The translations under genes were made by a program, and so were the position numbers. Below the pieces are notes generated by a model, which made no database searches, was not told where the DNA came from, and saw only the letters and a list, made by a program, of their open reading frames with translations. Below, piece after piece: positions 26,809 through 60,309 of a stretch of 64,000 nucleotides of DNA. The stretch spans positions 14,862 to 78,861 of the forward strand of contig JANNVB010000049.1 in assembly GCA_031414215.1 (NCBI GenBank), given 5' to 3'. This stretch comes from Polaromonas sp. (GTDB lineage Bacteria; Pseudomonadota; Gammaproteobacteria; Burkholderiales; Burkholderiaceae_C). Positions within the stretch are counted from its first letter, which is position 1. Each line of letters begins with the position of its first letter.

Positions 26809-27921
26809 ATGTTATTCCAATCTTCCATACGCAGAGAGCTGGCCCGGAGTTTCGGGGCTACGTTTGTTGTCTTGATCACCATTGTGCTGACCATTGTGCT
26901 GATACGCACATTGGGTCAAGCCTCACGCGGCGTTATCAACCCGCAAGATGTGATGCTGTTCATGGCCTATTCGGCTCTGGGCCGTCTGCCCACCATTTTG
27001 ACGTTGTCGCTGTTCATTGCCATGGTAGGCACTTTGTCGCGCATGTACCGTGACAGTGAAATGGTGGTCTGGTTTAGCAGTGGTCGCAGTTTGATGGGCT
27101 TTTTGGCACCGCTGTTTCGCTTTGCTTGGCCCGTGTTACTGATTGTTGCTTTGACATCCTTGTTTATTTGGCCCTGGACAAACCAGCAAACCCGCGACAT
27201 GCAGCAGCGTTACGCAGGGCGAAGCGATATTGACCGCATTGCGCCGGGACAGTTCCAGGAGTCATCTGGTGGGAATCGGGTGTTTTTCATTGATCGGGAT
27301 GCCAAAACTGATCAGAAATCAAGCAACAACGTCTTCATCGCCGCAAATGAAAAAGGTAAAAACTCCATCACCACCGCACGTTCTGGCCGGATTGAAATTA
27401 CTGGCGAAAAACAGGTACTGATTTTAGAAAACGGCCAGCGCCTGGAAAACGAGAACGGCAAGAACAGCTTGAAGATCAGCAATTTTGAAGAGTACGGCAG
27501 CGCGGTAGGCAGTACTGCCCAAGAAAACACAGAGGCCAGCGATGCCAAGCTGCTGTCTATACCTGTGTTGTTGAGCGCACCGACACGTGCCAACCTGAGT
27601 GAGTTGGCCTGGCGGCTTGGGCTGGCAGTGGCTGCCATCAATTTTGTGGTGCTGGCAGTGGCGCTGGCCAATGTCAACCCGCGAGGTGGACGCAGCGGCA
27701 ACTTTGTTTTTGTGGTGCTGACTTTTTTGGTCTACAACAACCTCGTAAACCTGGGGCAAAGCTGGATTTTGGGCGGGCTGGTGAGTTTTGGCGGATGGCT
27801 GATGCTGCTGCATGGCGGCGTCTTGCTGCTGGGCTTGCTGTGGCTGGCCAAGCGCAACGCCAACTGGACGCTGCGTTCGGCTTTTCGCACACGTCCCAAA
27901 CTGAACAGGGCGGCCGCATGA
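26809..27921 (+). CDS. lptF: LPS export ABC permease LptF
   Basis: YjgP/YjgQ family. MLFQSSIRRELARSFGATFVVL. Divergent from pepA, as in many proteobacteria. Confidence 0.85.
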   Translation: MLFQSSIRRELARSFGATFVVLITIVLTIVLIRTLGQASRGVINPQDVMLFMAYSALGRLPTILTLSLFIAMVGTLSRMYRDSEMVVWFSSGRSLMGFLAPLFRFAWPVLLIVALTSLFIWPWTNQQTRDMQQRYAGRSDIDRIAPGQFQESSGGNRVFFIDRDAKTDQKSSNNVFIAANEKGKNSITTARSGRIEITGEKQVLILENGQRLENENGKNSLKISNFEEYGSAVGSTAQENTEASDAKLLSIPVLLSAPTRANLSELAWRLGLAVAAINFVVLAVALANVNPRGGRSGNFVFVVLTFLVYNNLVNLGQSWILGGLVSFGGWLMLLHGGVLLLGLLWLAKRNANWTLRSAFRTRPKLNRAAA

Positions 27922-46398: not shown

Positions 46399-46761
46399 TC
46401 ATGAGTCATCTCCAGACTCATCCGATAAAAGGGGATGCGTACCGAAGAGCGTCAACAAAGCGGAACTGTCCTTCCGGGCAGAAACCGCGTGCTTTTCGCC
46501 GGGGCTGATGTGGCACAAATCACCTGGGTTCAGCGTCAACTGTCGCCCCATCGTTTCAAAAAGAATCTCACCTTCGAGGCACTGAAATACCAAATGAAGG
46601 CTGACAGCGTGTGGTTTTAAAACATGGCCACGAGGCAGTACAAGACGTGAAATTTGCAACGCATGTTCTCTGACAAGGGTCTGCGACCGACCGGCAGACC
46701 ACTGCTCCCCAAGCGATCCAGCAGCAATGACTTCTCCAAATGTGGCGTGTATTTGGGCCAT
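46399..46761 (-). CDS. cupin-domain protein downstream of norB
   Basis: ATG 46761 (MAQIHATF...). ...GHVLKPHAVSLHLVFQCLEGEILFE...GDLCHISPGEKHAV looks like a cupin beta-barrel. Confidence 0.5.
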   Translation of the reverse strand: MAQIHATFGEVIAAGSLGEQWSAGRSQTLVREHALQISRLVLPRGHVLKPHAVSLHLVFQCLEGEILFETMGRQLTLNPGDLCHISPGEKHAVSARKDSSALLTLFGTHPLLSDESGDDS

Positions 46762-46768
46762 TGACGTT

Positions 46769-49081
46769 TCAATCCGCTCTCGGCGTGGCGCGCCCTGCAA
46801 AATAAGCCCGTACCGCCGCAATCACGATCGGCACCACGCCCACAACAATAAATACGGCATCACCGGGAAATCGCGCCCACTCCATCATGCGCGCCAAGTC
46901 ACCGCCGGTGTAAGCCAGGCTGCGCGCATGCCAGTAGCCGTTGTTCAGCACATCGGCCAATTGCAAAATACCCGCCGGGAACAGGCTGAAGACCACCATC
47001 ATCATCAGCCCGATATTCAGCCCCCAAAAGCCGACGCGGATGTACTTTTCAAGCTCGCGCCACAGCTTTTCATCAACCGTCTGGCGAATGGCAAACACAA
47101 TCAGCGCAATGCCCAACATGCCAAACACACCCATCATGGCGGCGTGGCCGTGGTTGATGGTCAGCAGCGTGCCAGTTTCAAAATAGCTCACCACGGGCAG
47201 GTTGATCAAAAAGCCCAGCACACCCGCGCCAAAAAAGTTCCAGAAACCGACCGACATCAAAAAGTAGAACGTCCATTTGTGCGGCACTTCAGTGCGCTCG
47301 CGCTTGGGGTCTGAACCAGGCCAAGATAGGCGCACAAAATCCCACGCATCCAGGGTGATCAGGGTCAGCGGCACCACTTCAAGCGCTGAAAACACCGCCG
47401 ATAGCGCCATGTTCAAACTGGTTTGACCTGACCAGTACCAGTGATGGCCTGTGCCGATAAAGCCGCCCGCAAAGTACAGCACCGCATCCAGGTAAATCAC
47501 CCGCGTGGCGGTCAGCCGCGTGACCACACCAAATTGCAAAAAGATGATGGCCACCATTACGGTCACAAAAAATTCAAAGAAGCCCTCCACCCACAAGTGA
47601 ATGATCCAAAAGCGCCAGGTATCGACAATTGAAAAGTGCGTGCTGCCGTCAAAAAACATGGCGGGCAAGTAAAACACCGGAATGGCTACGGCTGCGCACA
47701 TGAACAACCCGGCAATCTCGCGGCGCTCAGGGTCTCGCCACGCCGGTTGCAGTGCCCGCACCAGCAACCCAAACCAGAACAGCAACGCCACTGCCAGCAT
47801 CATTTGCCAGGCGCGGCCCAACTCCAGATACTCCCATCCCTGGTGACCAAACCAAAACCACCAGTTGGGCAACAGTTGCAGCATGCCAGCCCACTCGCCC
47901 AGCATGCTGCCCACCACCACCACGATCAAGGCACCAAACAAAACATCGATGCCTTTTTTCTGGCCTTTTGGGTCGCCACCGCCCAGCGTTGCCGCCAAAA
48001 ACAACGCGCCCGCCACATAGCAAGTCGCTATCCAGAAAAGTGCCAATTGCAAATGCCAGGTACGCAGCAAATTACTCGGCAACCAAGCTGCCAGATCGAA
48101 CCCATAAAACGTACCAGGGTCGGCACGGTAATGGGCCAAAGCCCCGCCAACAAGCGTTTGGGCAAATAGCAACAGTGCCACCACCGCAAAATACTTCAGC
48201 GTGGCGCGCTGGGCGGGCGTGGCTGTCGTGCTCTGTGCTGGCGGGTGCAAATAACCGGCTCGGGCTTTCCAGCCCAGGTAGTCAAACTTGCCAAAGGCCA
48301 GCAACACGGCAGCCGTGCCGCCCAATAAAAAGATCAGGCTGACAGCAGACCAGAGCACTGCATCGGCTGATGGCGTATTGCCGGCCAGCGGGTCATAGGG
48401 GAAGTTGTTGGTGTATGAATGGTTGGTACTAGGCCGCAGTGCTGCCGCGGCCCAGGATGTCCATGCCACAAAAGCGCTCAGTTGGCGCAACTCGCCAGGG
48501 TCAGTGATGGTTTTCGCACGCAGGCCACCGTTGTATTTGGGGTCTGAGAAATACTCGACCCAAGCGGCAGGACGACTTGCAAACCATGCTGCGTAGTCTT
48601 CGCCCACCGTCAGCACCTTGGTTTGCGGGTCGTAGAGGTTTTGTTTCAGTGCGGTACGTACCTCTGCTTCAATGGCTGCGCGTTTGGCGGGCGGCAAAGT
48701 TTCTAACGTGCCGTTGCCTCTTGCCAAGGCCATGCTGCTGGCGTTGTGTACGGCCAGTGTGTGCAAATAGTCGGCTGAAAAATCAGGACCCAGAAGAGCG
48801 CCGTGGCCCCAGATCGATCCGTTGTTCATCAGCGCGTATTTTAAAAACACCAGTTGCCCAGCGGTGACGTCTTGGGCGGTGTACACCACAACGCCGCTGG
48901 TGGTCACCACCCGTTCAGGTATTGGCGGCGCGTCGGTGTAGACCCTGGTGGTCAGCAAAATTAGCACCGCAAAGCCGAGCACCATGGTGATGATTGCCGA
49001 GCGCCGCCACCACGGCGACAACTTGTCAGTGGTTTGGGCGCCAGACAGCGGCGGCATGCCAGACGAGAGGTCATTTTGCAT
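46769..49081 (-). CDS. norB: quinol-dependent nitric oxide reductase (single-subunit qNor)
   Basis: About 770 aa. Long N-terminal extension plus a 12-TM heme-copper oxidase core (HLWVEGFFE, HHWYW, GHAAMMGVFG). ATG 49081. Confidence 0.85.
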   Translation of the reverse strand: MQNDLSSGMPPLSGAQTTDKLSPWWRRSAIITMVLGFAVLILLTTRVYTDAPPIPERVVTTSGVVVYTAQDVTAGQLVFLKYALMNNGSIWGHGALLGPDFSADYLHTLAVHNASSMALARGNGTLETLPPAKRAAIEAEVRTALKQNLYDPQTKVLTVGEDYAAWFASRPAAWVEYFSDPKYNGGLRAKTITDPGELRQLSAFVAWTSWAAAALRPSTNHSYTNNFPYDPLAGNTPSADAVLWSAVSLIFLLGGTAAVLLAFGKFDYLGWKARAGYLHPPAQSTTATPAQRATLKYFAVVALLLFAQTLVGGALAHYRADPGTFYGFDLAAWLPSNLLRTWHLQLALFWIATCYVAGALFLAATLGGGDPKGQKKGIDVLFGALIVVVVGSMLGEWAGMLQLLPNWWFWFGHQGWEYLELGRAWQMMLAVALLFWFGLLVRALQPAWRDPERREIAGLFMCAAVAIPVFYLPAMFFDGSTHFSIVDTWRFWIIHLWVEGFFEFFVTVMVAIIFLQFGVVTRLTATRVIYLDAVLYFAGGFIGTGHHWYWSGQTSLNMALSAVFSALEVVPLTLITLDAWDFVRLSWPGSDPKRERTEVPHKWTFYFLMSVGFWNFFGAGVLGFLINLPVVSYFETGTLLTINHGHAAMMGVFGMLGIALIVFAIRQTVDEKLWRELEKYIRVGFWGLNIGLMMMVVFSLFPAGILQLADVLNNGYWHARSLAYTGGDLARMMEWARFPGDAVFIVVGVVPIVIAAVRAYFAGRATPRAD

Positions 49082-49181
49082 ATACAAGTCCTTTTTATTG
49101 GCAGGTTATATGGCTGGCTCGTCAAATGGCTGGAATGGCGGCTAGGTACGCTGACCGTAGATGCAATTGATTGATGAGACT

Positions 49182-49195
49182 TTGCGTTAGATCAA
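49182..49195. promoter_or_regulatory. FNR/Dnr-type box candidate (TTGCG-N4-ATCAA) upstream of norB
   Basis: ttgcgttagatcaa lies ~100 nt upstream of the norB ATG. 8/10 match to TTGAT-N4-ATCAA. Confidence 0.3.
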
Positions 49196-49249
49196 ACATC
49201 ACGCTGGCTTTGCGAAATAAGGATGACCAGCCATAAAACTTGCTCACTG

Positions 49250-49265
49250 TGTGCGCCAGCGTACA
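49250..49265. promoter_or_regulatory. palindrome TGTGCG-CCAG-CGTACA (site D of the shared motif)
   Basis: Midway in the norB / PAS-kinase divergent region. 13/16 match to site A. Confidence 0.35.
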
Positions 49266-49429
49266 GACCGGAGGATCAAAATCAGTGAAAGTCTTGGGAA
49301 TTGCGTTTGGGCGCGGGTTTATGCGGCATTGGACTACACCCATTTGCACCAGTTAGGCGTATGCTGAAAAAACCTGTTTTATTGCAGCCGTGGCCCTAAT
49401 CTCTCAACAGACTCTTCAAACAACCCCAT

Positions 49430-51535
49430 ATGCCCCTGACTGACAGCCTGATTAACGCCAACACTGACGCTGCCATCACTGACGGCATGACAGAAATGTT
49501 GCGCCAGGAAACGCTGCTTAAAACCGGCGCGCTGCAAAAAGCCATTTTCAACAGCGCCAACTTTTCCAGCATCGCCACCGACGCCAAAGGCGTGATCCAG
49601 ATTTTCAACGTGGGCGCGGAGCGCATGTTGGGCTATGCGGCGCTGGAGGTGCTGAACAAAATCACCCCCGCTGATATTTCAGACCCGCAAGAAGTGATTG
49701 CCCGGGCCAAAGCCCTCAGCATTGAACTGGGTACGCAGATTGAGCCCGGTTTTGAGGCGCTGGTCTTCAAGGCTTCACGCGGGATCGAAGACATTTATGA
49801 GCTGACCTACATCCGCAAAGACGGCAGCCGCTTTCCGGCCATGGTGTCCGTGACAGCCTTGCGCGACGAAGCGGACGTGATCATTGGTTACTTGCTGATT
49901 GGCACCGACAACACTGTGCGCAAGCAGGTTGAAGAAGAGCGCAAAAAGCTGGACCAGCGGCTGCGCGACCAGCAGTTCTACACCCGCTCGCTGATTGAGT
50001 CCAACATCGATGCGCTGATGACCACCGACCCGGCGGGCATCATTTCAGACGTCAACAAGCAAATGGAAGCGCTGACCGGCTGCACGCGCGACGAACTGAT
50101 AGGCGCACCGTTTAAAAACTATTTCACCGAGCCGGACCGCGCTGAAGCCGGTATCAAGCGGGTGCTCAATGAGAACAAGGTCACCAACTACGAGCTGACG
50201 GCCCGCGCAAGGGACGGCAGGGAAACCGTGGTGTCTTACAACGCCACCACCTTTCATGACCGGGAACGAAACCTGCAAGGCGTTTTTGCGGCGGCGCGAG
50301 ACATCACCGAGCGCAAACTGCTCGACCAGGTGCTGCAAGACAATAACGTCGAGCTGCAAAACGCCATGTCAGCAGCTGAAAAAGCCAACCTCGCCAAGTC
50401 AGAGTTTTTGTCCAGCATGAGCCATGAGCTGCGCACACCGCTCAGCGCCATCCTTGGGTTTGCCCAATTGATAGAGTCTGGCGAGCCACCTCCATCGCCC
50501 ACCCAAAAACGCAGCGTTGACCAGATCCTTCTGGCAGGCTGGTATTTGCTGAACCTGATCAATGAAATTTTGGACCTAGCGCTGATTGAGTCCGGCAAGC
50601 TGTCGCTGTCGCCAGAGCCGGTGTCGCTGGCTGCGGTCATGCACGAGTGTGAAGACATGATCGAGCCGCAGGTGCAAAAGCGCGGCATCACGATGGTTTT
50701 CCCGCATCGGGAACTGCCGTATTTCATCAAGGCAGACCGCACCCGCATCAAACAAATTTTGATCAATTTGCTTTCAAACGCCATCAAATACAACCGAAGT
50801 AACGGCAGGGTTGTGGTGGAGTGTATTGAGGTGCCTGAAGGGCGCATACGAATTTGTGTTGAAGACACCGGCCAGGGTTTGAGTGCTGAACAAATTACTC
50901 AGCTATTTCAGCCGTTTAATCGCCTCGGGCAGGAAGCCCATGCCGAAGAAGGCACCGGTATTGGCCTGGTCATGACAAAACGACTGGTCGAGCTGATGGG
51001 CGGCGTGATTGGCGTTGAAAGCACCGTCGGTGAAGGCAGTATTTTTTGGGTTGAAATGAACCTGACGGATGAACGACAAGCCCATGCCGACCACACCCAT
51101 TTTCCAGCTGCCACAGCTTTGCCACTGCCGGTTGGCAGCAAGTTGCGCACGCTGCTGTACGTAGAAGACAACCCGGCTAACCTGATGCTGGTTGAACGGC
51201 TGATTGACCGACGCCCCGACCTGCGCCTGCTGACCGCGACAGACGGTTACAGCGGCATTGAGATGGCGCGCGCGTCCATGCCCGATGTGATTTTGATGGA
51301 CATCAACCTGCCCGGCATCAGCGGCATCAAGGCTTTGAGGATATTGAGCGACGACCCTGCCACAGCGCATATTCCGGTCGTGGCCCTGAGCGCCAACGCC
51401 ATGCCGCGCGACATTGAAAAAGGCCTGGACGCGGGGTTTTTCAAGTACCTGACCAAACCGCTGAAGATCAACGAATTTATGGACACACTGGACGACGTGC
51501 TCAAGTTTTCCGAACTAAAGGCTGCAACCCCATGA
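49430..51535 (+). CDS. PAS-domain hybrid sensor histidine kinase/response regulator
   Basis: Multiple PAS units. H-box SMSHELRTPLSAILGF. HATPase (NAIKYN, DTGQGL, GTGIGL). C-terminal REC (LLYVEDNPANL...ILMDINLPGISG). Confidence 0.85.
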   Translation: MPLTDSLINANTDAAITDGMTEMLRQETLLKTGALQKAIFNSANFSSIATDAKGVIQIFNVGAERMLGYAALEVLNKITPADISDPQEVIARAKALSIELGTQIEPGFEALVFKASRGIEDIYELTYIRKDGSRFPAMVSVTALRDEADVIIGYLLIGTDNTVRKQVEEERKKLDQRLRDQQFYTRSLIESNIDALMTTDPAGIISDVNKQMEALTGCTRDELIGAPFKNYFTEPDRAEAGIKRVLNENKVTNYELTARARDGRETVVSYNATTFHDRERNLQGVFAAARDITERKLLDQVLQDNNVELQNAMSAAEKANLAKSEFLSSMSHELRTPLSAILGFAQLIESGEPPPSPTQKRSVDQILLAGWYLLNLINEILDLALIESGKLSLSPEPVSLAAVMHECEDMIEPQVQKRGITMVFPHRELPYFIKADRTRIKQILINLLSNAIKYNRSNGRVVVECIEVPEGRIRICVEDTGQGLSAEQITQLFQPFNRLGQEAHAEEGTGIGLVMTKRLVELMGGVIGVESTVGEGSIFWVEMNLTDERQAHADHTHFPAATALPLPVGSKLRTLLYVEDNPANLMLVERLIDRRPDLRLLTATDGYSGIEMARASMPDVILMDINLPGISGIKALRILSDDPATAHIPVVALSANAMPRDIEKGLDAGFFKYLTKPLKINEFMDTLDDVLKFSELKAATP

Positions 51536-52008
51536 ACAACGAATTCGATATCTTCAACGCCCGCATCCTGATTGTTGACGACATGCCCGTCAACGTGCAG
51601 TTGCTCGAACAACTGCTGGCAGAAACTGGCTACACCCAAGTCAGCTCAACATTGGACCCGCAGGCGGTCTGTGGGCTGCACGCGGCCCACCCTTATGACC
51701 TGATTTTGCTGGACCTCAAAATGCCGGTGATGGACGGCTTTCAGGTCATGCAGGGACTCGAAAAAACCCCGGGCGACAGCTACCTGCCCGTCATCGTGCT
51801 GACGGCCGAGCCCAGCCACAAACTGCGTGCCTTGCAGGCGGGTGCCAAAGACTTCATCAGCAAACCGTTTGACCTGATTGAAGTCAAAACCCGCATCTAC
51901 AACATGCTGGAGGTGCGCCTGCTGTATAAAAAGCTTGCGCAATACACCAAGCTGCTGGAATACGCGACCAACCAGCGCACAGAAGACATGATTTCAGTCA
52001 GGCACTGA
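51532..52008 (+). CDS. single-domain response regulator (REC)
   Basis: ILIVDDMPVNVQLL...LILLDLKMPVMDGF...LTAEPS...KPF. ATGA overlap with the kinase gene. Confidence 0.85.
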   Translation: MNNEFDIFNARILIVDDMPVNVQLLEQLLAETGYTQVSSTLDPQAVCGLHAAHPYDLILLDLKMPVMDGFQVMQGLEKTPGDSYLPVIVLTAEPSHKLRALQAGAKDFISKPFDLIEVKTRIYNMLEVRLLYKKLAQYTKLLEYATNQRTEDMISVRH

Positions 52009-52025
52009 CCGGGCATTCAAGCGGG

Positions 52026-52457
52026 TCAGCCCGTTGCTACAAGCCTGTCAGCCCGAGCAGCACCCAGCACGTCTGAAAAGTGGCTGTCCACCAGTTCCAC
52101 AGGCCGTTTGCCTTTGAGCCATACATTCGGCTGCGCAAACCACTGCGCCAGCGTCCAGTTGTCCAGCACGGCAGACAACTCATGTACCACGCGCCGCACT
52201 TCCTGCTTGACAGACAGGTCATGTGGGTGGAACTGGAACATCGGTATCCAGTAGTGGTTTTGCCATTCAAAGCTGAAAATATCACGCGACACAATCCGCT
52301 TGGCCACGCTGACAAAATCACCTTTTTGCTTGTCTTCTAGTAGCAGCGCCAGGTCGTCGGCCCTGGCTGTGCCGCCACGGGTTTTGTAAGCATCAATCAT
52401 GGCCTCGAAGCCTTGGCGGTTAAGAACGTTGGTCATGGCCAATATCGGCACGTCCAT
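52026..52457 (-). CDS. hypothetical protein; C-terminal segment resembles the DUF2384 (Xre/MbcA/ParS antitoxin-type) domain
   Basis: ATG 52457 (MDVPILAM...; the track start 52478 is TTG). C-terminus WFAQPNVWLKGKRPVELVDSHFSDVLGAARADRLVATG fits the W-F-x-x-P-N-x-x-L-x-G-x-x-P pattern. Confidence 0.4.
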   Translation of the reverse strand: MDVPILAMTNVLNRQGFEAMIDAYKTRGGTARADDLALLLEDKQKGDFVSVAKRIVSRDIFSFEWQNHYWIPMFQFHPHDLSVKQEVRRVVHELSAVLDNWTLAQWFAQPNVWLKGKRPVELVDSHFSDVLGAARADRLVATG

Positions 52458-52474
52458 GGAGCCCTGCCTGCCGT

Positions 52475-52858
52475 TCAACGTTTTTGCTGTATTTGGCGCT
52501 CAATTGTCAGTGCCGCATGCAATTGCTGCATGGACTCGACGCACTCCAGCACCGTCTTTTTCGTCAGCTCGTGTCGGTTGTGTAGCGGCAGTTCAGGGGC
52601 TTTAACCAGCGCGTCACTCACGCAGTTTTCAAGCCGCTTTTGGATGGCATGAAACAGCTCATCCCAGTCTTCTGGGGCAATTTTTGGACGCAGGTCGAGC
52701 AAATTTGCATCTGGCCCAGGGTTGGGCTCAGGATTCAGCTCGGGTGCGGGTATTGGTCGATGCACGCTTTGGGCTGCGCCCTTGCTGCGAAACAAACCAA
52801 GCACTGATTGCGCCACCTGAGTGACATGCGGCATAGGGGTATTGGCCAGTCGAATCAT
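52475..52858 (-). CDS. hypothetical protein (Pro-rich linker + helical C-terminus)
   Basis: 127-aa ORF. ATG with an AAGGAG SD. First gene of a two-gene unit. No domain recognised. Confidence 0.4.
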   Translation of the reverse strand: MIRLANTPMPHVTQVAQSVLGLFRSKGAAQSVHRPIPAPELNPEPNPGPDANLLDLRPKIAPEDWDELFHAIQKRLENCVSDALVKAPELPLHNRHELTKKTVLECVESMQQLHAALTIERQIQQKR

Positions 52859-52926
52859 GGAAAGCTTCTCCTTAGAGCTTATTCAATGTGGGTGGCTCTA
52901 TTGAAAATGCAGGCAGTACCGCCGTC

Positions 52927-52942
52927 TGTTCGTTAGCGCACA
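52927..52942. promoter_or_regulatory. palindrome TGTTCG-TTAG-CGCACA (site C of the shared motif)
   Basis: 69-84 nt upstream of the 52858 start. Followed by TA, as in sites A and B (CGCACATA). Confidence 0.4.
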
Positions 52943-52991
52943 TAGTACAGTTTGTGACTTATTTATTTTGATGTTTTAAAGTAACTAATAT

Positions 52992-53112
52992 GCTATGTTT
53001 TTAGGAGCTTTTTACGCCCGTATTTATTAGTTTAGAGGCCTAAACAGTACCTATAAAGTGTCTGAAAACAGAGCTTTAAGTGCTTTTTAAGACGCAAAAC
53101 ACCCGTTTTGAC
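52992..53112 (+). repeat. Family-A repeat, degenerate left half-element
   Basis: gctatgtttttaggagcTTTTTACGCCCGTATTTATTAGtttagaggcctaaacagtacctataaag... Confidence 0.7.
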
Positions 53113-53122
53113 TATGGCCTGC

Positions 53123-53824
53123 CTACAACAGCTCGGCGTAGGTCTTTTGGTCTGCCGCGTAGCAGCCGCAGGCGGCGCGCTCTAAGCCCTTGCGGTTAAG
53201 CACCGTCACCTTACCCCGACTGTAGGCAATCAGCCCATTTTTTTGCAGCGCGCCTGCTGCCGCCGAAATGCCCACCCGCCGCACACCCAGCATATAGGCC
53301 AAAAACTCTTGCGTTACCTCAAAGCTGCTGGCACGCGACCTGTCCTGGCTCATCAGCAGCCAGCGCGCCAGGCGCGGGCCAATTTGATGAAACCGCACGC
53401 AGGCGGTTGACTCGGCCAGTTGCGCCATCAGCACATACAAATAGCGGTTTAACTCGTTTTGCAGGGCTGGGCTGGCGGCCAGCTCGGCCTTAAAAGCCCT
53501 GGTACCAATGCGCAACGCTGTGCCAGCGCCCTGCACCAGCGCATGCAGCGGGGCGGTAGCCACGCCCAGCGCCAGCTGCACGCCCAGCATGCCCTCGCGG
53601 CCCACCATGCCCACCTCGACACCGGGGCTGCCTTTAACCACTGCAATCAGCGAGATAAAACCAGCGGTGGGGAAATACACATATTGGGTCGGTTTACCGG
53701 GTTCGCACAATACCTCGGCCAGCGTTAAATCAACACTTTCGCAAGCGGCGATAAAGCGCAGGCGATCTTTTTTGGGGAGCAAATCAATCAGGTGATTGCC
53801 CGGGGGAGTTGACTTCGGCGTCAT
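53123..53824 (-). CDS. Crp/Fnr-family transcriptional regulator (1)
   Basis: cNMP-binding-like barrel (YVYFPTAGFISLIAVV...VGMVGREGMLG) plus a C-terminal HTH (TQEFLAYMLGVRRVGISAAAGALQKNGLI). Confidence 0.85.
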   Translation of the reverse strand: MTPKSTPPGNHLIDLLPKKDRLRFIAACESVDLTLAEVLCEPGKPTQYVYFPTAGFISLIAVVKGSPGVEVGMVGREGMLGVQLALGVATAPLHALVQGAGTALRIGTRAFKAELAASPALQNELNRYLYVLMAQLAESTACVRFHQIGPRLARWLLMSQDRSRASSFEVTQEFLAYMLGVRRVGISAAAGALQKNGLIAYSRGKVTVLNRKGLERAACGCYAADQKTYAELL

Positions 53825-53939
53825 GAAAAGCCTTTGGTGCGCTGCTGCCCTTCAGGTTGAAGGAATGAGCCACGGCCCTGCTGCTGAAGTTAGCAGTCTT
53901 GATCGATGGGTTAGCTTATAGGAAATGAGCTGAAATGTT

Positions 53940-53955
53940 TGCGTGCTACCGCACA
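53940..53955. promoter_or_regulatory. site B of the shared motif (TGCGTG-CTAC-CGCACA; alternative left half TTTGCG at N6)
   Basis: 116-131 nt upstream of the 53824 start. Right half CGCACATA is perfect and the left half is weak. Confidence 0.3.
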
Positions 53956-54002
53956 TAGCGCCGAAACCAGCCAGATAAGCGCCAATAGACTACACCACTG
54001 GG

Positions 54003-54752
54003 CTAGGCGGCAGTTTTTGCAGGCAGCAAGCGGTCGTATTCTTTTTTGACCACGGCATAACACTCGCAACTGCGTTCTTCCAGGCCTGGCCTGTTGAGCA
54101 CATTGATACGGCCCCGGCTGTACTTGATGAGTCCGGCGTTTTGCAGCTTGGTCGCGCCTTCGGTCACGCCTTCCCGGCGAACGCCCAGCATGTTGGCAAT
54201 CAGCTCTTGCGTCATGGTCAGCTCGTTGCCGTCTAGCCTGTCCAGGCTCAGCAGCAGCCAGCGGCACAACTGCTGGTCAAGCGTATGGTGACGGTTGCAC
54301 ACAGCGGTTTGCGACATTTGGGTAATCAACGCCTGGGTGTAGCGCAGCAGCAAGTGCAGCACCGGGCCGCCCCGGTCAAACTCTTTTTTCATGGCCTTGG
54401 CTTTGAGGCGAAAGCCGTGCCCTGCGCTTTGCACCACGGCCCGGCTGGGCGTGGAGCCGCCACCCATGAAGAGTGAGATGCCCACCAGGCCTTCGTTGCC
54501 CACCACCGCAATTTCAGCAGATGCACCGTTTTCCATCACATACAGCATTGAAACGATGGCCGTGGTGGGAAAGTAAACGTGGCTCAGTGTTTTGCCCGAC
54601 TCATAAAGGACGTGGCCCAGCGGCATTTCGACATGCTCCAGCAAGGGCAGCCAGCGCTGCCACTCATCACCCGCCAGGGCGGCAAGCAAACGGTTTTTAC
54701 GGGGGCTAGGTGCTTTTGCGTCCGGCATATTTGAATCGGGTTTTGATGCCAT
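54003..54752 (-). CDS. Crp/Fnr-family transcriptional regulator (2)
   Basis: ATG 54752 with an AGGAG SD. NRLLAALAGDEWQRWLPLLEHVEMPLGHVLYESGKTLSHVYFPTT... plus HTH TQELIANMLGVRREGVTEGATKLQNAGLI. Confidence 0.85.
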   Translation of the reverse strand: MASKPDSNMPDAKAPSPRKNRLLAALAGDEWQRWLPLLEHVEMPLGHVLYESGKTLSHVYFPTTAIVSMLYVMENGASAEIAVVGNEGLVGISLFMGGGSTPSRAVVQSAGHGFRLKAKAMKKEFDRGGPVLHLLLRYTQALITQMSQTAVCNRHHTLDQQLCRWLLLSLDRLDGNELTMTQELIANMLGVRREGVTEGATKLQNAGLIKYSRGRINVLNRPGLEERSCECYAVVKKEYDRLLPAKTAA

Positions 54753-54843
54753 GGTGAAACTCCTGTTAGGCCAGCTTTGCATCACTACCGCAGGACGGTT
54801 TGGCACAAAGTCCAGCAGTCTAGACACATTGTGCGCGTTTATC

Positions 54844-54859
54844 TGTGCGCTAACGCACA
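54844..54859. promoter_or_regulatory. perfect palindrome TGTGCG-CTAA-CGCACA (site A of the shared motif)
   Basis: 92-107 nt upstream of the 54752 start. An extra half-site TTGTGCGCG lies at 54829-37. Confidence 0.45.
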
Positions 54860-54901
54860 TAACTGTTACACGGCGCTAATGCAAAGTGTTAATACAAAGC
54901 G

Positions 54902-57900
54902 TTAATGAAAATCACGACTGGGCGTACCCAGCCGACCCAGCAGGGGCGACAAGTCCTCCAGGCTGGCGGCAATCAGGTTACGTACTTTGCCAAAGCCTTC
55001 AGGCGCGCCGTCTTCTTCACTGCGCTGCCATGTGCCGTACACGGCCAACAGCCGGGCATGCAGCACCTCAGCGCGCTGGGTTTGCCGCAATGACTTCCAG
55101 ACAATCACATTGATCGACCCGGTTTCGTCTTCAAGGGTGAGGAACATCGTGCCTTTGGCGGTTGAGGGCTGCTGGCGCAGCGTGACGATACCGCAGGCGG
55201 CGACGTCTTCGCCATCGGGCAGTGCGTTGAGCTGCGCGGCGGTTAAAAAGCCTTTTTCAGCCAGGCGTGAGCGCAGCAGTGCCAGCGGGTGGCGGCGCAG
55301 CGTGAGGCCGGTGGCGCGGTAGTCGAACAAAATGTTTTCACCCTCGGGCGTGTCTGGCAGGTCGAGTGCCGCCTCGTGCGTGGGCACGGCTTTTAGCAGC
55401 AGTGGCTGCGGTTTGATGGCTGCTGCTTGCCACACCTGCTGCCTGCGGTGGCCGGCCAGCGGGGCGAGTGCATCGGCGGCGGCCAGGGCGTTGACCTCTA
55501 AGGTGCCGAGCTGGGCGCGCAGGCAGAGGTCTTCAACACTGGTGAATGCGGCTTGGCTTCTGGCGGTCAGGATGCGGTCAACCGTGGTCTCGCTCAGGCC
55601 GCTGACCAGGCGCAGCCCCAGGCGAATGGCGGGCTGGTTGGGGCGTATGCCGGGGTAGGCTGCATCAGGTTCACGCAAAACCGCATTTGCCTCAAGGGTG
55701 CAGTCCCAGGCGCTTTGGGTGATGTCGATGGCTCGTACGTCAACCCCGTGCCTGCGGGCGTCTTGCATCAGTTGCGACGGTGAATAAAACCCCATCGGCT
55801 GGGAGTTGACGAGTGCAGCAAAAAAACAGGCGGGTTCATGGCATTTGAGCCAGCAACTGACATACACCAGCTTGGCAAAGCTGGCGGCGTGGCTTTCAGG
55901 AAAACCGTATTCGCCAAAGCCTTCAATCTGCTTGAAGATGTTGTCGGCAAAGCTGCGCTCATAGCCGCGCTCAACCATGCGGCCCACCAGCCGGTCGTAA
56001 AACCGCTTGACGCCGCCCTTTCGCTTCCAGGCGGCCATGGAGCGGCGCAGGTCATCGGCCTCGCCAGCGGTAAAGTCAGCCGCCACCATGGCGATTTGCA
56101 TGACCTGCTCTTGAAATATCGGCACGCCCAGGGTGCGGCCCAGGGCGCGGCGCAGCTCTTCATTGGGGTAGGTTTCAAGCTGCGGGTTGGCGCGGCGTTT
56201 GAGGTAAGGGTGCACCATGCCGCCTTGAATCGGCCCGGGCCGCACGATGGCGACTTCAACCACCAGGTCGTAAAAGCAGCGCGGTTTGAGGCGCGGCAGC
56301 ATGCTCATTTGCGCCCGGCTTTCGATTTGAAACACGCCCACCGTATCGGCCTGGCAAATCATGTCGTAGGTTTGCTCGTCGCCTGACGGGATCTGGTGCA
56401 TCTCCAGGCGCCCACCGCGCCACTGGTCAATCAGCTGCAAGCTGCGCCGAATGGCCGACAACATGCCGAGCGCCAGCACATCAACTTTCAGCAGACCCAT
56501 CGCGTCCAGGTCGTCTTTGTCCCACTGAATGATGCGCCGCGCCTCCATGGTGGCGGGCTGAATCGGCACCAGCCGTGTCAGCTTGGATTGCGTCAGCACA
56601 AAGCCGCCCACATGCTGGCCCAAGTGGCGCGGGAAACCGAGCAATTGCACCGTCAGGTCCAGCCACTGCAAGATCGGGCCAGCGTCTTTTGCTTCGTTGA
56701 TATTGGCTTCTTGCAGGCGCTGAGCCAGCAGGCCGCTGCCGTCAAACCAGAAGTTTTCTTTGGCAAACTGCTCAATCATTTCAGGTGCAATACCGAGTGC
56801 CTTTCCCACATCACGAATGGCGCTGCGGGGCCGGTAGCAGGTGACGGTGGCGGCTATTGCCGCGCGGTCATGGCCGTATTTGGCGTAGATGTACTGAATC
56901 ACTTCTTCACGCCGTTGGTGCTCAAAGTCAACATCAATGTCGGGCGGCTCTTTGCGTTCGCGGCTGATAAAGCGTTCAAACAGCAATTGGCTTTCAGCCG
57001 GGTTGACCGCCGTGATGCCGAGGCAAAAGCACACCGCCGAATTGGCCGCAGAGCCGCGCCCCTGACACAAAATGCCCTGCTCGCGCGCAAAGCGGACGAT
57101 GTCATGCACGGTGATGAAATACATCTCGTAGTGCAGCTCTTCAATCAGGGCGAGTTCATGCGCCAGCTGGGTGCTGATTTGTGCGGGCACACCGCCCGGG
57201 TAGCGCTGGGCTGCGCCATCGCCTGTCAGGCGGCGCAGGCAGTTGGCGGGGGTTTCTTGTGTGGCGGCGATCTCGCCCAGCGGGTAGCGGTAAAGGTCAC
57301 GAATTTCGTTCAGGTTAAACGTGCAGCGCGACGCGACAACCAGGGTGGCTGCCAGCAGCTCGGGCGGGTACAAGCTGGCCAGCCGCATGCGGGGCCGCAA
57401 ATGCGCCTCAGCGTTGGGCTGCAGGGCAAAGCCGCAGTCGTGGACGGTTTTACTCAGCCCAATGGCGGTGAGGACGTCGTGCAGCGGCTTGCGTGATCGC
57501 ACATGCATGCGCACGTCCCCGCAAGCGAGAAGCGGCACGCCGGTTTGCTGGCTGAGTACCTGCAATTGCTGCAGGCGCAGCGCGTCGTCCAGCCCTTGCA
57601 GCAGCTCGACGCCAAGCCACATATGGGCGCTTTTTTGGGTATTAAAAAGGCCTTTTAACCAATGAATACGGGCGCAAGCAGCTTCTGTATTGATAGCACC
57701 TTGCACCAGGCAGACAATGACCTCACAGTGCTTCAGAATCGACAAGTCTGTACTTGGCGTGACCAAATAGCTGCCTTTTTCCACGGCATCGCCTGCGGCT
57801 CTGGCTTGGGTAATAAATTCGCACAGGTTGCCCCAGCCGCTGGCGTTGTGCGGCAACACCACCAGGCGAAAAGGCGAGTCACACGACACCCAAAACTCGG

Positions 57901-58099
57901 CTCCCGGCAGCAGCTGAATGCCGCATTTTTCAGCCTCGCCATGGGCCCGCACCACACCGGCGACCGAACATTCGTCTGTCATCGCGATGGCTTTGTAGCC
58001 CAGGGCGTGGGCGCGCGCTACCAGCTCCTCAGCGTGCGACGCGCCGCGCTGAAAGCTGAAATTGCTCAGCACATGGAGTTCAGCGTATTCCGGAAGCAT
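54902..58099 (-). CDS. dnaE2: error-prone DNA polymerase DnaE2 (ImuC)
   Basis: ATG 58099 gives MLPEYAELHVLSNFSFQRGAS (PHP domain), then the Pol III alpha core. 1-nt TAATG overlap with imuB. Carries one repeat in frame. Confidence 0.9.
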   Translation of the reverse strand: MLPEYAELHVLSNFSFQRGASHAEELVARAHALGYKAIAMTDECSVAGVVRAHGEAEKCGIQLLPGAEFWVSCDSPFRLVVLPHNASGWGNLCEFITQARAAGDAVEKGSYLVTPSTDLSILKHCEVIVCLVQGAINTEAACARIHWLKGLFNTQKSAHMWLGVELLQGLDDALRLQQLQVLSQQTGVPLLACGDVRMHVRSRKPLHDVLTAIGLSKTVHDCGFALQPNAEAHLRPRMRLASLYPPELLAATLVVASRCTFNLNEIRDLYRYPLGEIAATQETPANCLRRLTGDGAAQRYPGGVPAQISTQLAHELALIEELHYEMYFITVHDIVRFAREQGILCQGRGSAANSAVCFCLGITAVNPAESQLLFERFISRERKEPPDIDVDFEHQRREEVIQYIYAKYGHDRAAIAATVTCYRPRSAIRDVGKALGIAPEMIEQFAKENFWFDGSGLLAQRLQEANINEAKDAGPILQWLDLTVQLLGFPRHLGQHVGGFVLTQSKLTRLVPIQPATMEARRIIQWDKDDLDAMGLLKVDVLALGMLSAIRRSLQLIDQWRGGRLEMHQIPSGDEQTYDMICQADTVGVFQIESRAQMSMLPRLKPRCFYDLVVEVAIVRPGPIQGGMVHPYLKRRANPQLETYPNEELRRALGRTLGVPIFQEQVMQIAMVAADFTAGEADDLRRSMAAWKRKGGVKRFYDRLVGRMVERGYERSFADNIFKQIEGFGEYGFPESHAASFAKLVYVSCWLKCHEPACFFAALVNSQPMGFYSPSQLMQDARRHGVDVRAIDITQSAWDCTLEANAVLREPDAAYPGIRPNQPAIRLGLRLVSGLSETTVDRILTARSQAAFTSVEDLCLRAQLGTLEVNALAAADALAPLAGHRRQQVWQAAAIKPQPLLLKAVPTHEAALDLPDTPEGENILFDYRATGLTLRRHPLALLRSRLAEKGFLTAAQLNALPDGEDVAACGIVTLRQQPSTAKGTMFLTLEDETGSINVIVWKSLRQTQRAEVLHARLLAVYGTWQRSEEDGAPEGFGKVRNLIAASLEDLSPLLGRLGTPSRDFH
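57641..57697 (-). repeat. Family-A repeat inside the dnaE2 ORF (in frame)
   Basis: attaaaaaggccttttaaCCAATGAATACGGGCGCAAGCAGCttctgtattgatagc. Read on the minus strand as GAINTEAACARIHWLKGLFN. Confidence 0.85.
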
Positions 58100-59505
58100 T
58101 ACGCAAAGACTCCTTGCAAATACCACTCGCGCTGGTTTTGGTCACGTTCAGCCAACGCCAGGCGCTCGCTGTAAATCCAAAGCAACACACCCTGCCGGTT
58201 GCGGTAAATAAAGTAGTCGCGCAGTGCTGGCGCGATGTCAGCCTGGTCAGCAAGCAGCCAGCCAGTGGCCTCCAGACGCTGCGGCCCGGCCAGTTTGTGC
58301 AGCGGGCCCTGGTACACCGGGCTGCCCGCCACGGCGGCAAGCTTCAAAGGCACGGCCAGCAGCCAGGAGGGGTATAAAACACCGTTTTCAAGCCTGTTTT
58401 CAGTGTCTTTTAGGCCTTTTGACCAATGAATACGGGCGCAAGCAGCTCCTGATTTAATAGCGTTTGTTGTGCTGACTGCATTCTGCCAGCGCTGCATTTG
58501 CTCCGGCCGGTGGTCTGCACAGGCTTGCCAGGTTTGCACTTGTGCAGCGCCCAGCCGTGCGCTTAAACGCTCGATCAGTTGCAGCGCGCTGTCGCCCTGC
58601 TGTTTGTCCTCTGGCAGCAAGCTGGTGGTTGCGAGTGCACAGGCGCACAGCTTTTCGGTCACCAGCGACTGCAAGCCAATGGTGTGCACGGGGGCAGCCA
58701 GGGTTTGCTGGTTCAGCCGCTCGGTGATCAGCCGCGCCACATGCCGCAGGTCTTGCGCGTTGTTGGCTGATCGAACCACCAACTCGCCAGTTGCCGCCCC
58801 GCCCCGGCGTTTGTCAAAGTGCCAAATGATTTTTAGTGCCGTCAAACCGCTCTGGCGGCCCAGCAGCCAGGCCTGCAATTGCGCCAAGAGTTGCGACACA
58901 CCGGCCATCAACGCTGGGGCATGCACCACCAGCGCATCAAGCTCGAGCTTTTCATCAAACTGCTCGGGCAGTTGCAGCCAGGTATAGCTGTCGGGCAGCA
59001 CGCCCCGAGCCCGGTCCAGTGCGGCCAGCAGCGGCGCGCCAAAGCGGCGGGCCACGCCGTCGCGCGGCAGCTTGAGCAGGTCGTCCCAGGTGCGGCAACC
59101 CATGCGTTCGAGCACGTCCAGGTGCGGGCGAGCGGCGCTTAAAGTGTGCATCGGCATGTCGGCTACCCGGCCAGCGGGCTGCACTGGCTGGCCGCGCTGC
59201 AAGCGCAAGCGCCCGAGTGCTATTAATGATGTAGCGCCTTGCGCCCGTATATATTGGGCTAGAGGCATATTTAATGCTAAAAACTGCTGCAATTGCTGCT
59301 CTAGCAGGGCCAAGAGCTTGCGCAAACCACCAAACAGCCGCAAGCTGCCGGAGACTTCCATCACCACGGCTTCGTCGAGCAGGGCCACGCGCGGGGTAAA
59401 ACCCAGCGCAATGGCGCTGATGGCCCGCTGCAAGGCGGCGTCGTCCATCAGCATGGGCTCAGTGAAGGACTCAGTGGATGAGGCTTGTAACGCGATCCAG
59501 CGCAT
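58099..59505 (-). CDS. imuB: Y-family-polymerase-like ImuB
   Basis: MRWIALQ... start. Sits between imuA and dnaE2 in the canonical cassette order. Carries two repeats in frame. Confidence 0.8.
   Translation of the reverse strand: MRWIALQASSTESFTEPMLMDDAALQRAISAIALGFTPRVALLDEAVVMEVSGSLRLFGGLRKLLALLEQQLQQFLALNMPLAQYIRAQGATSLIALGRLRLQRGQPVQPAGRVADMPMHTLSAARPHLDVLERMGCRTWDDLLKLPRDGVARRFGAPLLAALDRARGVLPDSYTWLQLPEQFDEKLELDALVVHAPALMAGVSQLLAQLQAWLLGRQSGLTALKIIWHFDKRRGGAATGELVVRSANNAQDLRHVARLITERLNQQTLAAPVHTIGLQSLVTEKLCACALATTSLLPEDKQQGDSALQLIERLSARLGAAQVQTWQACADHRPEQMQRWQNAVSTTNAIKSGAACARIHWSKGLKDTENRLENGVLYPSWLLAVPLKLAAVAGSPVYQGPLHKLAGPQRLEATGWLLADQADIAPALRDYFIYRNRQGVLLWIYSERLALAERDQNQREWYLQGVFA
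58408..58461 (-). repeat. Family-A repeat inside the imuB ORF (in frame)
   Basis: ttttaggccttttgaCCAATGAATACGGGCGCAAGCAGCtcctgatttaatagc. Read on the minus strand as AIKSGAACARIHWSKGLK. Confidence 0.85.
59219..59275 (+). repeat. Family-A repeat inside the imuB ORF (in frame, opposite orientation)
   Basis: gctattaatgatgtagcGCCTTGCGCCCGTATATATTGGgctagaggcatattt. Read on the minus strand as PLAQYIRAQGATSLIAL. Confidence 0.8.
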
Positions 59506-60256
59506 GAAGCGGCTTTCGGAGCAGGTCAGACAAATCGATATAAGGCGTTTGCACTGGTACGGGCAGGCTTTGGCGGTGGCTGGGCCTTTGGCTGGCGGCT
59601 AAAAAGGCTGCTAGCCGCTGCGGCCGTGTATCAAGCAGCACGGGCGCGGCCAGTGGCGGGCCACGGCGCTTGAAAACATCGACCAGCAGATGGCCGCTGC
59701 TGGTTGCAGCTTGTAATAGCAAACGCAATGGCGCCGGAGACGATTCGTGCTGCGCCCGCTGCAGCCTGAAAACAAACAACAGCTTGTTGTGGGTGTGGGC
59801 CGCAATTTGCAGGCGGCGCAAGTGGGCGCTGCGCGCATCGGGCAGCCAGGCCACGACGGCGCCCACGTCAGCGCATTGCAGTGCCTCGCGGGTGGCCCAC
59901 AACAGCGCGGGGGCATCGTTTTTTTCAGCGTGGATACGCAGCAGGCGCTGCATGTCCAGCGCTTGCGCGGCCAGCGATGGGGCAAACGGGACATGCGGCG
60001 CGCCAACCAGCACTGTCCAGCCACGCGCCTGTGTTTTTTGCATGGCCGCCAAGGCAGGCAACAGCAAACCCCATTCATGCAGCCCCGCCTGCGACTGCAG
60101 CAGCTCGGTCAGGCTGGCACGCGGCCAACCGCCGCCGGGCAACACGCTGTCAAGCGCGGCGTAACCGGTCGCCACGGTTTGCTGGCTGTTGCCGCCCAGC
60201 TCACCGGCGCGCCAGACATGCGCCAGATGGGCGGAATCAATGAGTAAGGGAGACAA
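59471..60256 (-). CDS. imuA: ImuA (RecA/SulA-like) translesion-synthesis accessory protein
   Basis: ...VWRAGELG...TGYAALDSVLPGGGWPRASLTELL... is typical of ImuA. TTG start at 60256 (no ATG is available). First gene after the LexA box. Confidence 0.75.
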   Translation of the reverse strand: MSPLLIDSAHLAHVWRAGELGGNSQQTVATGYAALDSVLPGGGWPRASLTELLQSQAGLHEWGLLLPALAAMQKTQARGWTVLVGAPHVPFAPSLAAQALDMQRLLRIHAEKNDAPALLWATREALQCADVGAVVAWLPDARSAHLRRLQIAAHTHNKLLFVFRLQRAQHESSPAPLRLLLQAATSSGHLLVDVFKRRGPPLAAPVLLDTRPQRLAAFLAASQRPSHRQSLPVPVQTPYIDLSDLLRKPLHALDRVTSLIH

Positions 60257-60289: not shown

Positions 60290-60309
60290 TACTGTTTATA
60301 TGTACAGTA
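60290..60309. promoter_or_regulatory. LexA (SOS) box
   Basis: TACTGTTTATATGTACAGTA is a perfect CTGT-N8-ACAG palindrome, 34 nt upstream of the imuA start. Confidence 0.85.

Follow-up and report, generated by a model that had tools for sequence, protein, structure and literature searches.

A conserved 16-bp palindrome as the candidate class II operator of a Crp/Fnr regulator subfamily in Polaromonas and related proteobacteria

Introduction

Activators of the CRP/FNR type classically act at class II promoters from an operator centred at -41.5. Here we describe four 16-bp palindromes (sites A to D) in a stretch of Polaromonas sp. DNA (contig JANNVB010000049.1), which was analysed over its whole length of 64 kb and is called the window below, and two tandem genes, crp2 and crp1, which encode regulators of the Crp/Fnr superfamily. 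The sites are conserved in related genomes and take the form expected of Crp/Fnr operators, being two-fold symmetric, within the 14-16 bp range and, as judged from predicted promoters, centred near -41.5. We propose, with a probability of about 0.75, that they are operators of the adjacent Crp/Fnr dimer at class II promoters, from which crp2 would activate four transcription units. The sites, with their scores against the matrix described below, and the two regulator genes are as follows.

54842..54861, no strand assigned: site A, core 54844-54859 (TGTGCGCTAACGCACA); 20-bp operator TCTGTGCGCTAACGCACATA upstream of crp2; 29.0 bits
53938..53957, no strand assigned: site B, core 53940-53955 (TGCGTGCTACCGCACA); asymmetric operator in the interval between the crp2 stop and the crp1 start, reading TATGTGCGGTAGCACGCAAA in gene orientation; 17.2 bits
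52925..52944, no strand assigned: site C, core 52927-52942 (TGTTCGTTAGCGCACA); operator upstream of hyp127-hyp143; 28.4 bits
49248..49267, no strand assigned: site D, core 49250-49265 (TGTGCGCCAGCGTACA); operator 172 bp upstream of the kinase ATG; 25.5 bits
54003..54752, minus strand: crp2, Crp/Fnr regulator of 249 aa; PF13545 at E 8e-15, PF00027 at 28.4 bits (cut-off 27.5)
53123..53824, minus strand: crp1, Crp/Fnr paralogue of 233 aa, 39% identical to crp2; PF13545 at E 7e-15

Comparison with described Crp/Fnr regulators

With E. coli CRP the system shares the fold of crp2 (Foldseek TM score ~0.6-0.7), the -41.5 placement seen at CRP class II promoters, an Arg-Glu pair in the recognition helix that corresponds to R180-E181 of CRP and, in the sites themselves, the 16-bp two-fold geometry, the TGTG positions, a central CTAG/TA preference and T/A flanks. 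The first-pass annotation, made from the sequence of the window, had described the spacing as unlike that of CRP, but TGTGCG-N4-CGCACA is the same as TGTGC-N6-GCACA and thus has the 16-bp geometry of TGTGA-N6-TCACA; the consensus TGTGCGCTAGCGCACA departs from the CRP consensus TGTGATCTAGATCACA in the inner two bases of each half and nowhere else. In these inner positions the sites have CG instead of AT, and the G that matches G7 of the CRP box is degenerate. The position of R185 in CRP is occupied by Glu in crp2 and by Ala or a variable residue in crp1, and we infer that the Glu of crp2 reads the extra inner C:G pairs. Further differences are an identity to CRP below 20%, with no phmmer match to any CRP chain in the PDB (E <= 0.001) and no CRP model among the NCBIfam matches of the regulators, a non-canonical phosphate-binding cassette (GGxSTPSRAVVQ, with TPSRA), and two features of crp2, an additional helix at its C terminus and the invariant Cys3-His set. 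Judged by its box, the R185 position, the cassette and overall similarity, crp2 is not CRP proper.

FNR, DNR and NnrR belong to the same superfamily and follow the same class II logic, and an FNR-type box adjoins the sites, upstream of the norB gene. The published NnrR half-site is TTGCG, whose inner CG is the same as in the crp sites. Unlike the boxes of this group (TTGAT-N4-ATCAA, TTGCG-N4-CGCAA), the sites have G and not T as their outer base (GTnCG); at position 2, a T in FNR boxes, 99% of sites have G, which bears out the earlier statement that the palindrome is not the FNR box. The regulators differ as well, since crp2 has no cysteine before residue 152, and so no N-terminal [4Fe-4S] Cys cluster of the FNR kind, and its recognition helix reads E..TE where FNR, DNR and NnrR have E..SR. 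Unlike DNR and NnrR, it shows no conserved linkage to nir/nor genes (2/81 loci).

NtcA of cyanobacteria, a class II activator with the box GTA-N8-TAC at -41.5, gives the best weak sequence-model match (TIGR03697) and the highest identity among the structural matches (21-23%), and the variant half-site TGTACG contains GTA-N8-TAC. TIGR03697 nevertheless scores 16.7 bits where its cut-off is 244.95, our sites conserve the additional CG positions, and both the phyla and the targets differ. S. meliloti Clr (box TGTT-N8-AACA) likewise has a 16-bp palindrome with TGT/ACA ends, which variant TGTTCG half-sites fit, and is among the structural matches (7pza/7pzb, E ~1e-10), whereas its identity to crp2 is 16%, its inner box bases differ, and it is a receptor of cyclic AMP and cyclic GMP with a canonical cassette. 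YeiL of E. coli MG1655 was rejected as an identity for crp2, since BLASTP of crp2 gave a best E of 0.55 and the two are unrelated beyond the superfamily level. A paper on B. cenocepacia anr2 was also set aside as a description of the subfamily, as it concerns a true Anr homologue. In the PDB, NCBIfam and the literature searched, we found neither a characterised member of the subfamily nor a description of the motif. The mechanism proposed here is classical Crp/Fnr class II regulation, and what would be new is the operator specificity and possibly the sensor module.

The palindromes are conserved intergenic elements

The comparison set consisted of 80 loci obtained by scanning species-representative genomes, whose crp2 orthologues are 74-88% identical to that of the window; with the window itself this makes 81 loci. 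The taxa covered are Burkholderiales (Polaromonas, Variovorax, Ramlibacter, Collimonas, Methyloversatilis and others) and gamma-proteobacteria (Dyella, Rhodanobacter, Thermomonas and Thiocystis), the closest named relatives of the window being Polaromonas metagenome-assembled genomes. A symmetrised 20-bp matrix was built from the sites at the comparison loci after seeding with the pattern of the window, and upstream regions were scored at a threshold of at least 14 bits within 300 bp, with Markov-resampled sequence as background.

By this measure a site lies upstream of the crp2 orthologue at 68 of the 80 loci, compared with 0.15 in the resampled sequence. The raw pattern with at most two mismatches was found at most 350 bp upstream of the crp2 orthologue at about 60 of the 80 loci, where the density of such matches in the window predicts about 0.06 per region by chance. 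Conservation upstream of orthologues in relatives, which the first-pass annotation had named among the checks to be made, was obtained with both the matrix and the raw pattern. Sites occur at 0.78 per kb in intergenic DNA and at 0.05 per kb deep within coding sequence (a ratio of about 15-27). Enrichment of 6-mers upstream of crp2 orthologues recovered the motif fragments TATGTn, CGCTAG and GTCTGT, among words that are predominantly AT-rich.

In the window, all four palindromes were present exactly at the positions and with the sequences first reported, including the common continuation of sites A, B and C as CGCACATA, and a matrix scan of the 64 kb gave no score above 9 bits other than those of sites A, B, C and D. 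Simple counting was less telling. With at most one mismatch there were four matches where 0.75 were expected, a number reached in 1 of 100 shuffles; with at most two there were nine against 9.4 expected, hence no excess, and three mismatches likewise gave no enrichment. By counting in the window alone site B is indistinguishable from chance. The existence of the sites is therefore settled by the comparative evidence, the count in the window being weakly significant. Conservation across loci and intergenic enrichment together indicate that the four palindromes are real, evolutionarily conserved cis-elements, and the proposal of a genuine shared element is upheld at the level of sequence comparison.

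Among the four matches with at most one mismatch, that at 26895-26910 was rejected as a chance occurrence; it lies inside lptF, in a tandem duplication. The duplication itself consists of two copies of the 12-bp unit CCATTGTGCTGA (26878-26901), in the 5' part of lptF, and gives rise to the sole near-match to the palindrome in a coding region.

The refined motif is T-n-TGTnCG-nTAn-CGnACA-n-A, in which G2, T3, C5 and G6 are nearly invariant and the centre is TA, while the fourth position of each half is degenerate, with G in 58%, T in 22% and A in 15%. The symmetric variable positions show no covariation, positions 4 and 13 being complementary in 76 of 206 sites where 86 would be expected, which argues that the two halves are read independently, as by a protein dimer, and not as a hairpin. 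The sites at crp1 promoters are asymmetric: over 28 such sites the distal half carries a mean of 0.61 mismatches and the promoter-proximal half 2.36. The weak left half noted in site B is thus a trait of crp1 promoters across species and, as the asymmetry is conserved, would be a conserved design.

Placement of the sites relative to predicted promoters

In 100 sites that could be oriented towards a single downstream gene, a -10-like element (T-A-n-a-n-T) occupies positions +30 to +35 relative to the site centre. The sequence TAnnnT starts at exactly +30 in 19 of them, all other offsets having counts of 0-4 (binomial p ~1e-10), and across species the looser nAnnnT occurs at +30 in 19 of 38 Crp-gene promoters and 18 of 50 other targets. 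With a spacing of +30 the operator is centred at -41.5, as at class II promoters, and takes the place of the -35 element. The corresponding elements in the window are as follows.

54817..54822, minus strand: -10-like TAGACT of site A, with 30 bp between site centre and hexamer start, which places that centre at -41.5
53915..53920, minus strand: -10-like TATAAG of site B, with 28 bp between site centre and hexamer start
52900..52905, minus strand: -10-like TTCAAT of site C, with 30 bp between site centre and hexamer start; an identical hexamer at the same spacing in loci L001 and L009
49287..49292, plus strand: weak -10-like GAAAGT on the kinase side of site D, with 30 bp between site centre and hexamer start; A31, A33 and T35 are kept in L001

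Site C is kept together with its -10 element in L001, the locus of the closest relative. A consensus promoter scan of positions 48900-55000 found no sigma-70 promoter with a good -35 element, which fits activator dependence and is uninformative on its own.

Two further features adjoin the sites. An extra half-site lies at 54830-54837, in the interval between site A and its -10 element, and reads TGTGCGCG on the plus strand and CGCGCACA in gene orientation. Between the crp1 stop codon and site C there is a spacer of ~180 bp (52945-53120) that is unusually AT-rich and has blocks kept in L001 (AATAAAT.CGGGCG.AA.AAGCT..TAAAAACATAGC); it has no Rfam match, and may serve as a further regulatory site or encode a small RNA.

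The regulators crp2 and crp1

Both regulators score above the cut-off for PF13545, the C-terminal Crp-type helix-turn-helix, whereas for PF00027, the N-terminal beta-roll of cNMP-binding type, crp1 stays below the cut-off at 19.9 bits. The window holds no further Crp/Fnr genes. A longer open reading frame of crp2 starting at 54860 was rejected, as its first 36 residues are unconserved and the ATG at 54752 is preceded by AGGAG. The orthologues of crp2 are conserved over almost their full length, with the helix-turn-helix at least 90% conserved; the recognition helix reads GVRREGVTE in crp2 and GVRRVGIS in crp1 (GvRRvGiT in crp1 orthologues).

The AlphaFold2 model of crp2 (mean predicted local distance difference test, pLDDT, of 84; predicted template modelling score of 0.82) has the Crp/Fnr fold, with beta strands over residues 39-117, a helix over 130-155 and two extra C-terminal helices. 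Foldseek matched it to CRP, GlxR, FNR and NtcA at E 1e-11 to 1e-13 and TM scores of 0.6-0.72; the best structural matches (M. tuberculosis CRP, GlxR, FNR, NtcA and Clr) are 14-23% identical to it. In a phmmer search of the PDB only one sequence was detectable, an uncharacterised Eubacterium protein, and no specific NCBIfam model matched the regulators.

The subfamily is very large, comprising 4,221 clusters at 50% identity (E <= 1e-30), and the clusters looked up for distant representatives carry no more than generic names. In 45 diverse representatives (47-68% identity) 12 columns are invariant, among them C152, H156, C229 and C231, all four of which are invariant in crp1 too. The first two of these four residues lie where the dimerisation helix meets the hinge, and the other two where the extra C-terminal helix begins. 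This arrangement suggests a metal or iron-sulphur (Fe-S) site at the hinge between the sensor and DNA-binding parts.

Genes downstream of the sites

Besides crp2 and crp1, the sites in the window precede two small hypothetical genes and a kinase-receiver operon, and a mutagenesis cassette lies nearby.

49430..51535, plus strand: cytoplasmic PAS-PAS-HisKA-HATPase-REC hybrid histidine kinase of 701 aa (Pfam)
51532..52008, plus strand: single-domain response regulator of 158 aa (PF00072), overlapping the kinase stop codon
52026..52457, minus strand: hyp143, 143 aa; PF09722 at E 6e-4, below the cut-off
52475..52858, minus strand: hyp127, 127 aa, with no known domain
54902-60256, minus strand: imuA-imuB-dnaE2 cassette (Pfam)

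Across the 80 loci a site stands upstream of 85 of 114 Crp genes, 13 of 16 PAS histidine kinases and seven of eight members of the hyp127 family, as well as five of six OmpA-type and four of five BON proteins. The auto- or cross-regulatory link first drawn between the tandem Crp/Fnr genes, and its extension to the hypothetical pair and to the PAS kinase-receiver operon, thus recur in other species. Further targets at these loci are DUF4398 lipoproteins, fatty-acid hydroxylases, single receivers, GGDEF proteins, cyclic glucan synthase, amino-acid permeases and proteins of the CsbD, DUF1003, DUF3309, BrkB and flavin mononucleotide (FMN) reductase types. The loci are island-like, with a site in nearly every intergenic region, and the order site-crp2-site-crp1-site-hyp127-hyp150, followed by a convergent response regulator-histidine kinase pair and its site, recurs in L001 and L003.

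At one locus (L084:12859-17719) a 24-bit site precedes an arcD-arcABC operon, in which the arcD permease gene is followed by genes for arginine deiminase, ornithine carbamoyltransferase and carbamate kinase. With its four Usp genes, cation ATPase, alcohol dehydrogenase, cbb3 oxidase genes and BLUF protein, the neighbourhood of crp2 at this locus is of the hypoxia or anoxic-survival type. Taken together, the target families found elsewhere (BON, OmpA, CsbD, DUF1003, the Usp neighbours and arcDABC) suggest that the signal is one of stress or energy limitation.

The hyp127 protein has no match in Pfam, NCBIfam or PADLOC. A segment like its N-terminal part (DWDxLFxAVxxRL ... LxQLHxxLxxER) is fused elsewhere to a GGDEF diguanylate cyclase domain (L016:8807-9628 and relatives), and PAS-GGDEF-EAL genes come after hyp127 homologues in L008, L013 and L025. 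For hyp143, which belongs to a small family of 110 proteins and has no match to a defence system in PADLOC, several homologues carry a precomputed PF09722 (DUF2384) assignment, and its AlphaFold2 model (pLDDT 91) gives weak Foldseek matches to the MbcA antitoxin and to Rv2175c (TM score 0.61). The protein probably has a winged-helix N-terminal part joined to a DUF2384-like domain, as found at the C terminus of Xre/MbcA/ParS proteins, and hyp143 may, tentatively, be a small DNA-binding or antitoxin-like protein.

The imuA-imuB-dnaE2 cassette is headed by a perfect LexA-type SOS box, CTGTTTATATGTACAG (CTGT-N8-ACAG, 60292-60307), located ~36 bp upstream of imuA.

The nitric oxide reductase gene and site D

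On the other side of site D lies a gene for nitric oxide reductase, which the first-pass annotation had included in the regulon.

46769-49081, minus strand: norB, quinol-type (Pfam)

It is tempting to regard site D as bidirectional, with the same regulator controlling norB as well, since the site lies in the divergent norB-kinase region, nearly equidistant from the two start codons (176 and 172 bp), and both the arrangement and the site are kept in L001. We nevertheless consider this unlikely. An alignment of the norB-kinase intergenic region of the window with that of L001 shows two conserved blocks, namely site D, which differs in L001 only at degenerate positions, and a box of the FNR/DNR/NnrR type (TTGCGTTAGATCAA, 49182-49195; TTGAT-CTAA-CGCAA on the norB strand). 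Some 108 bp separate this box from the norB ATG downstream of it; the box is 100% conserved in L001, and in both loci it is followed by a TAnnnT at +30 towards norB, so that box and -10 element together constitute what would be a conventional class II promoter for another regulator. Site D is 69 bp upstream of the box, at about -110.5 of the norB promoter, a distance of 6.6 helical turns and therefore off helical phase.

The distribution of norB points in the same direction. Of the 81 loci only two, the window and L001, have norB as a neighbour; the 110 target proteins from other species include a single denitrification protein, which is that same norB in L001, and the 25 Pfam families listed for the targets include none related to denitrification. 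Locus L085 is syntenic with the window (imuAB-dnaE2 ... crp2-crp1, response regulator-histidine kinase, serA, DUF1223) but has no norB, and yet keeps a 27-bit site in the interval between the kinase start and the 3' end of serA; L003 likewise has a site upstream of the kinase without norB. On this evidence site D serves the kinase operon, perhaps with a secondary effect on norB, and membership of norB in the regulon is not borne out. The expression of norB most likely depends on a separate regulator of the FNR/DNR type that recognises the box in the norB promoter; the window encodes no cognate regulator for that box. Directly downstream of norB, and overlapping its 3' end, is an open reading frame of 140 aa with a cupin domain (46399-46821).

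Proposed regulation and alternatives

As we picture the system, a signal would activate crp2, through either the beta-roll pocket or the Cys3-His set, and active crp2 would bind sites A to D near -41.5 and contact RNA polymerase directly, as in class II activation. The strong site A would give positive autoregulation of crp2, and the half-degenerate site B, presumably of lower affinity, would switch on crp1 in a crp2-to-crp1 cascade, while site C would turn on hyp127-hyp143 and site D the PAS hybrid kinase-receiver operon.

Several points weigh against this proposal. The -10 element of site B lies at +28 and not at +30, and that of site D is weak (GAAAGT). Every comparison locus was picked for having crp2, so that the co-occurrence of motif and regulator covers crp2-bearing genomes only, and the matrix was trained on the same loci that it scores, which makes its scores partly circular; the raw-pattern result upstream of crp2 (at most two mismatches) is independent of this training. 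A crp2 relative at 55% identity has an upstream site of 10 bits, with stronger sites nearby, and one at 50% identity, in an Acidobacteriota genome, has no upstream site; from this fading of the motif the operator is taken to belong to the proteobacterial crp2 clade. Finally, the half-site downstream of site A might mediate autorepression at high levels of the regulator.

As to which paralogue binds, the most likely binder is crp2, with its helix-turn-helix at least 90% conserved, possibly together with crp1. That crp1 or a crp1-crp2 heterodimer is the binder instead, or that the paralogues split the sites between them, is an idea to which we give little credence. The recognition helices do differ (RREGVTE as opposed to RRVGIS/T), position 4 of the half-site is degenerate, and crp1-promoter sites differ systematically from the others, so that crp1, with Val at the position equivalent to E181 of CRP, might have been thought to recognise half-sites whose fourth base is T or A. 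This last version was not supported by the composition of position 4, which does not differ between loci that have crp1 next to crp2 and loci that do not (60% vs 59% G, p = 0.84). Moreover, the 40 loci that lack an adjacent crp1 still carry ~2.3 sites each, although crp1 could be encoded elsewhere in those genomes.

It is also conceivable, and in our judgement very unlikely, that the sites are repressor operators serving negative autoregulation. Many autoregulated transcription factors are autorepressors, a half-site does intervene between site A and its -10 element, and several orthologues have two upstream sites. A repressor site would, however, be expected to overlap the -10 element or the transcription start, and a fixed 30 bp to the -10 element together with the lack of a -35 element is the signature of activator-dependent class II promoters. 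The chance or structural reading, in which the palindromes are accidental or are hairpins, terminators or repeats resembling repetitive extragenic palindromes, could appeal to the unremarkable two-mismatch count in the window and to the position of site A ~43 bp past the dnaE2 stop codon, but it is effectively refuted by the cross-species statistics (68/80 vs 0.15, intergenic enrichment and fixed phasing with the -10 element) and, for RNA structure, failed on the absence of covariation between the arms and of any Rfam family match, with no T-run following the palindromes, which leaves it a negligible probability.

Implications for the Crp/Fnr superfamily

Activation of the four units by crp2 remains our preferred account. 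Only tentatively do we add a more far-reaching one, in which the Cys3-His set binds a metal or an Fe-S cluster and provides a new mode of redox, oxygen or metal sensing, at the head of an autoregulated stress island and combined with a new DNA specificity. If this is true, the island under the control of the subfamily in Burkholderiales and Xanthomonadales would serve general stress or anoxic survival and would contain PAS kinases and cyclic di-GMP enzymes alongside the genes for BON, OmpA, CsbD and Usp proteins and for arginine deiminase, and the subfamily would have a DNA specificity in which a Glu at the position of R185 in CRP reads inner C:G pairs.

With the tempting link to nitric oxide reductase corrected as unsupported, a concrete operator (T-n-TGTnCG-nTAn-CGnACA-n-A at -41.5) and a core regulon are now attached to a widespread Crp/Fnr subfamily, which enables regulon prediction in hundreds of Burkholderiales and gamma-proteobacterial genomes and flags the invariant Cys3-His set as a candidate sensor. 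The positive-feedback island would join two Crp paralogues, a PAS phosphorelay and genes for stress and anoxic survival.

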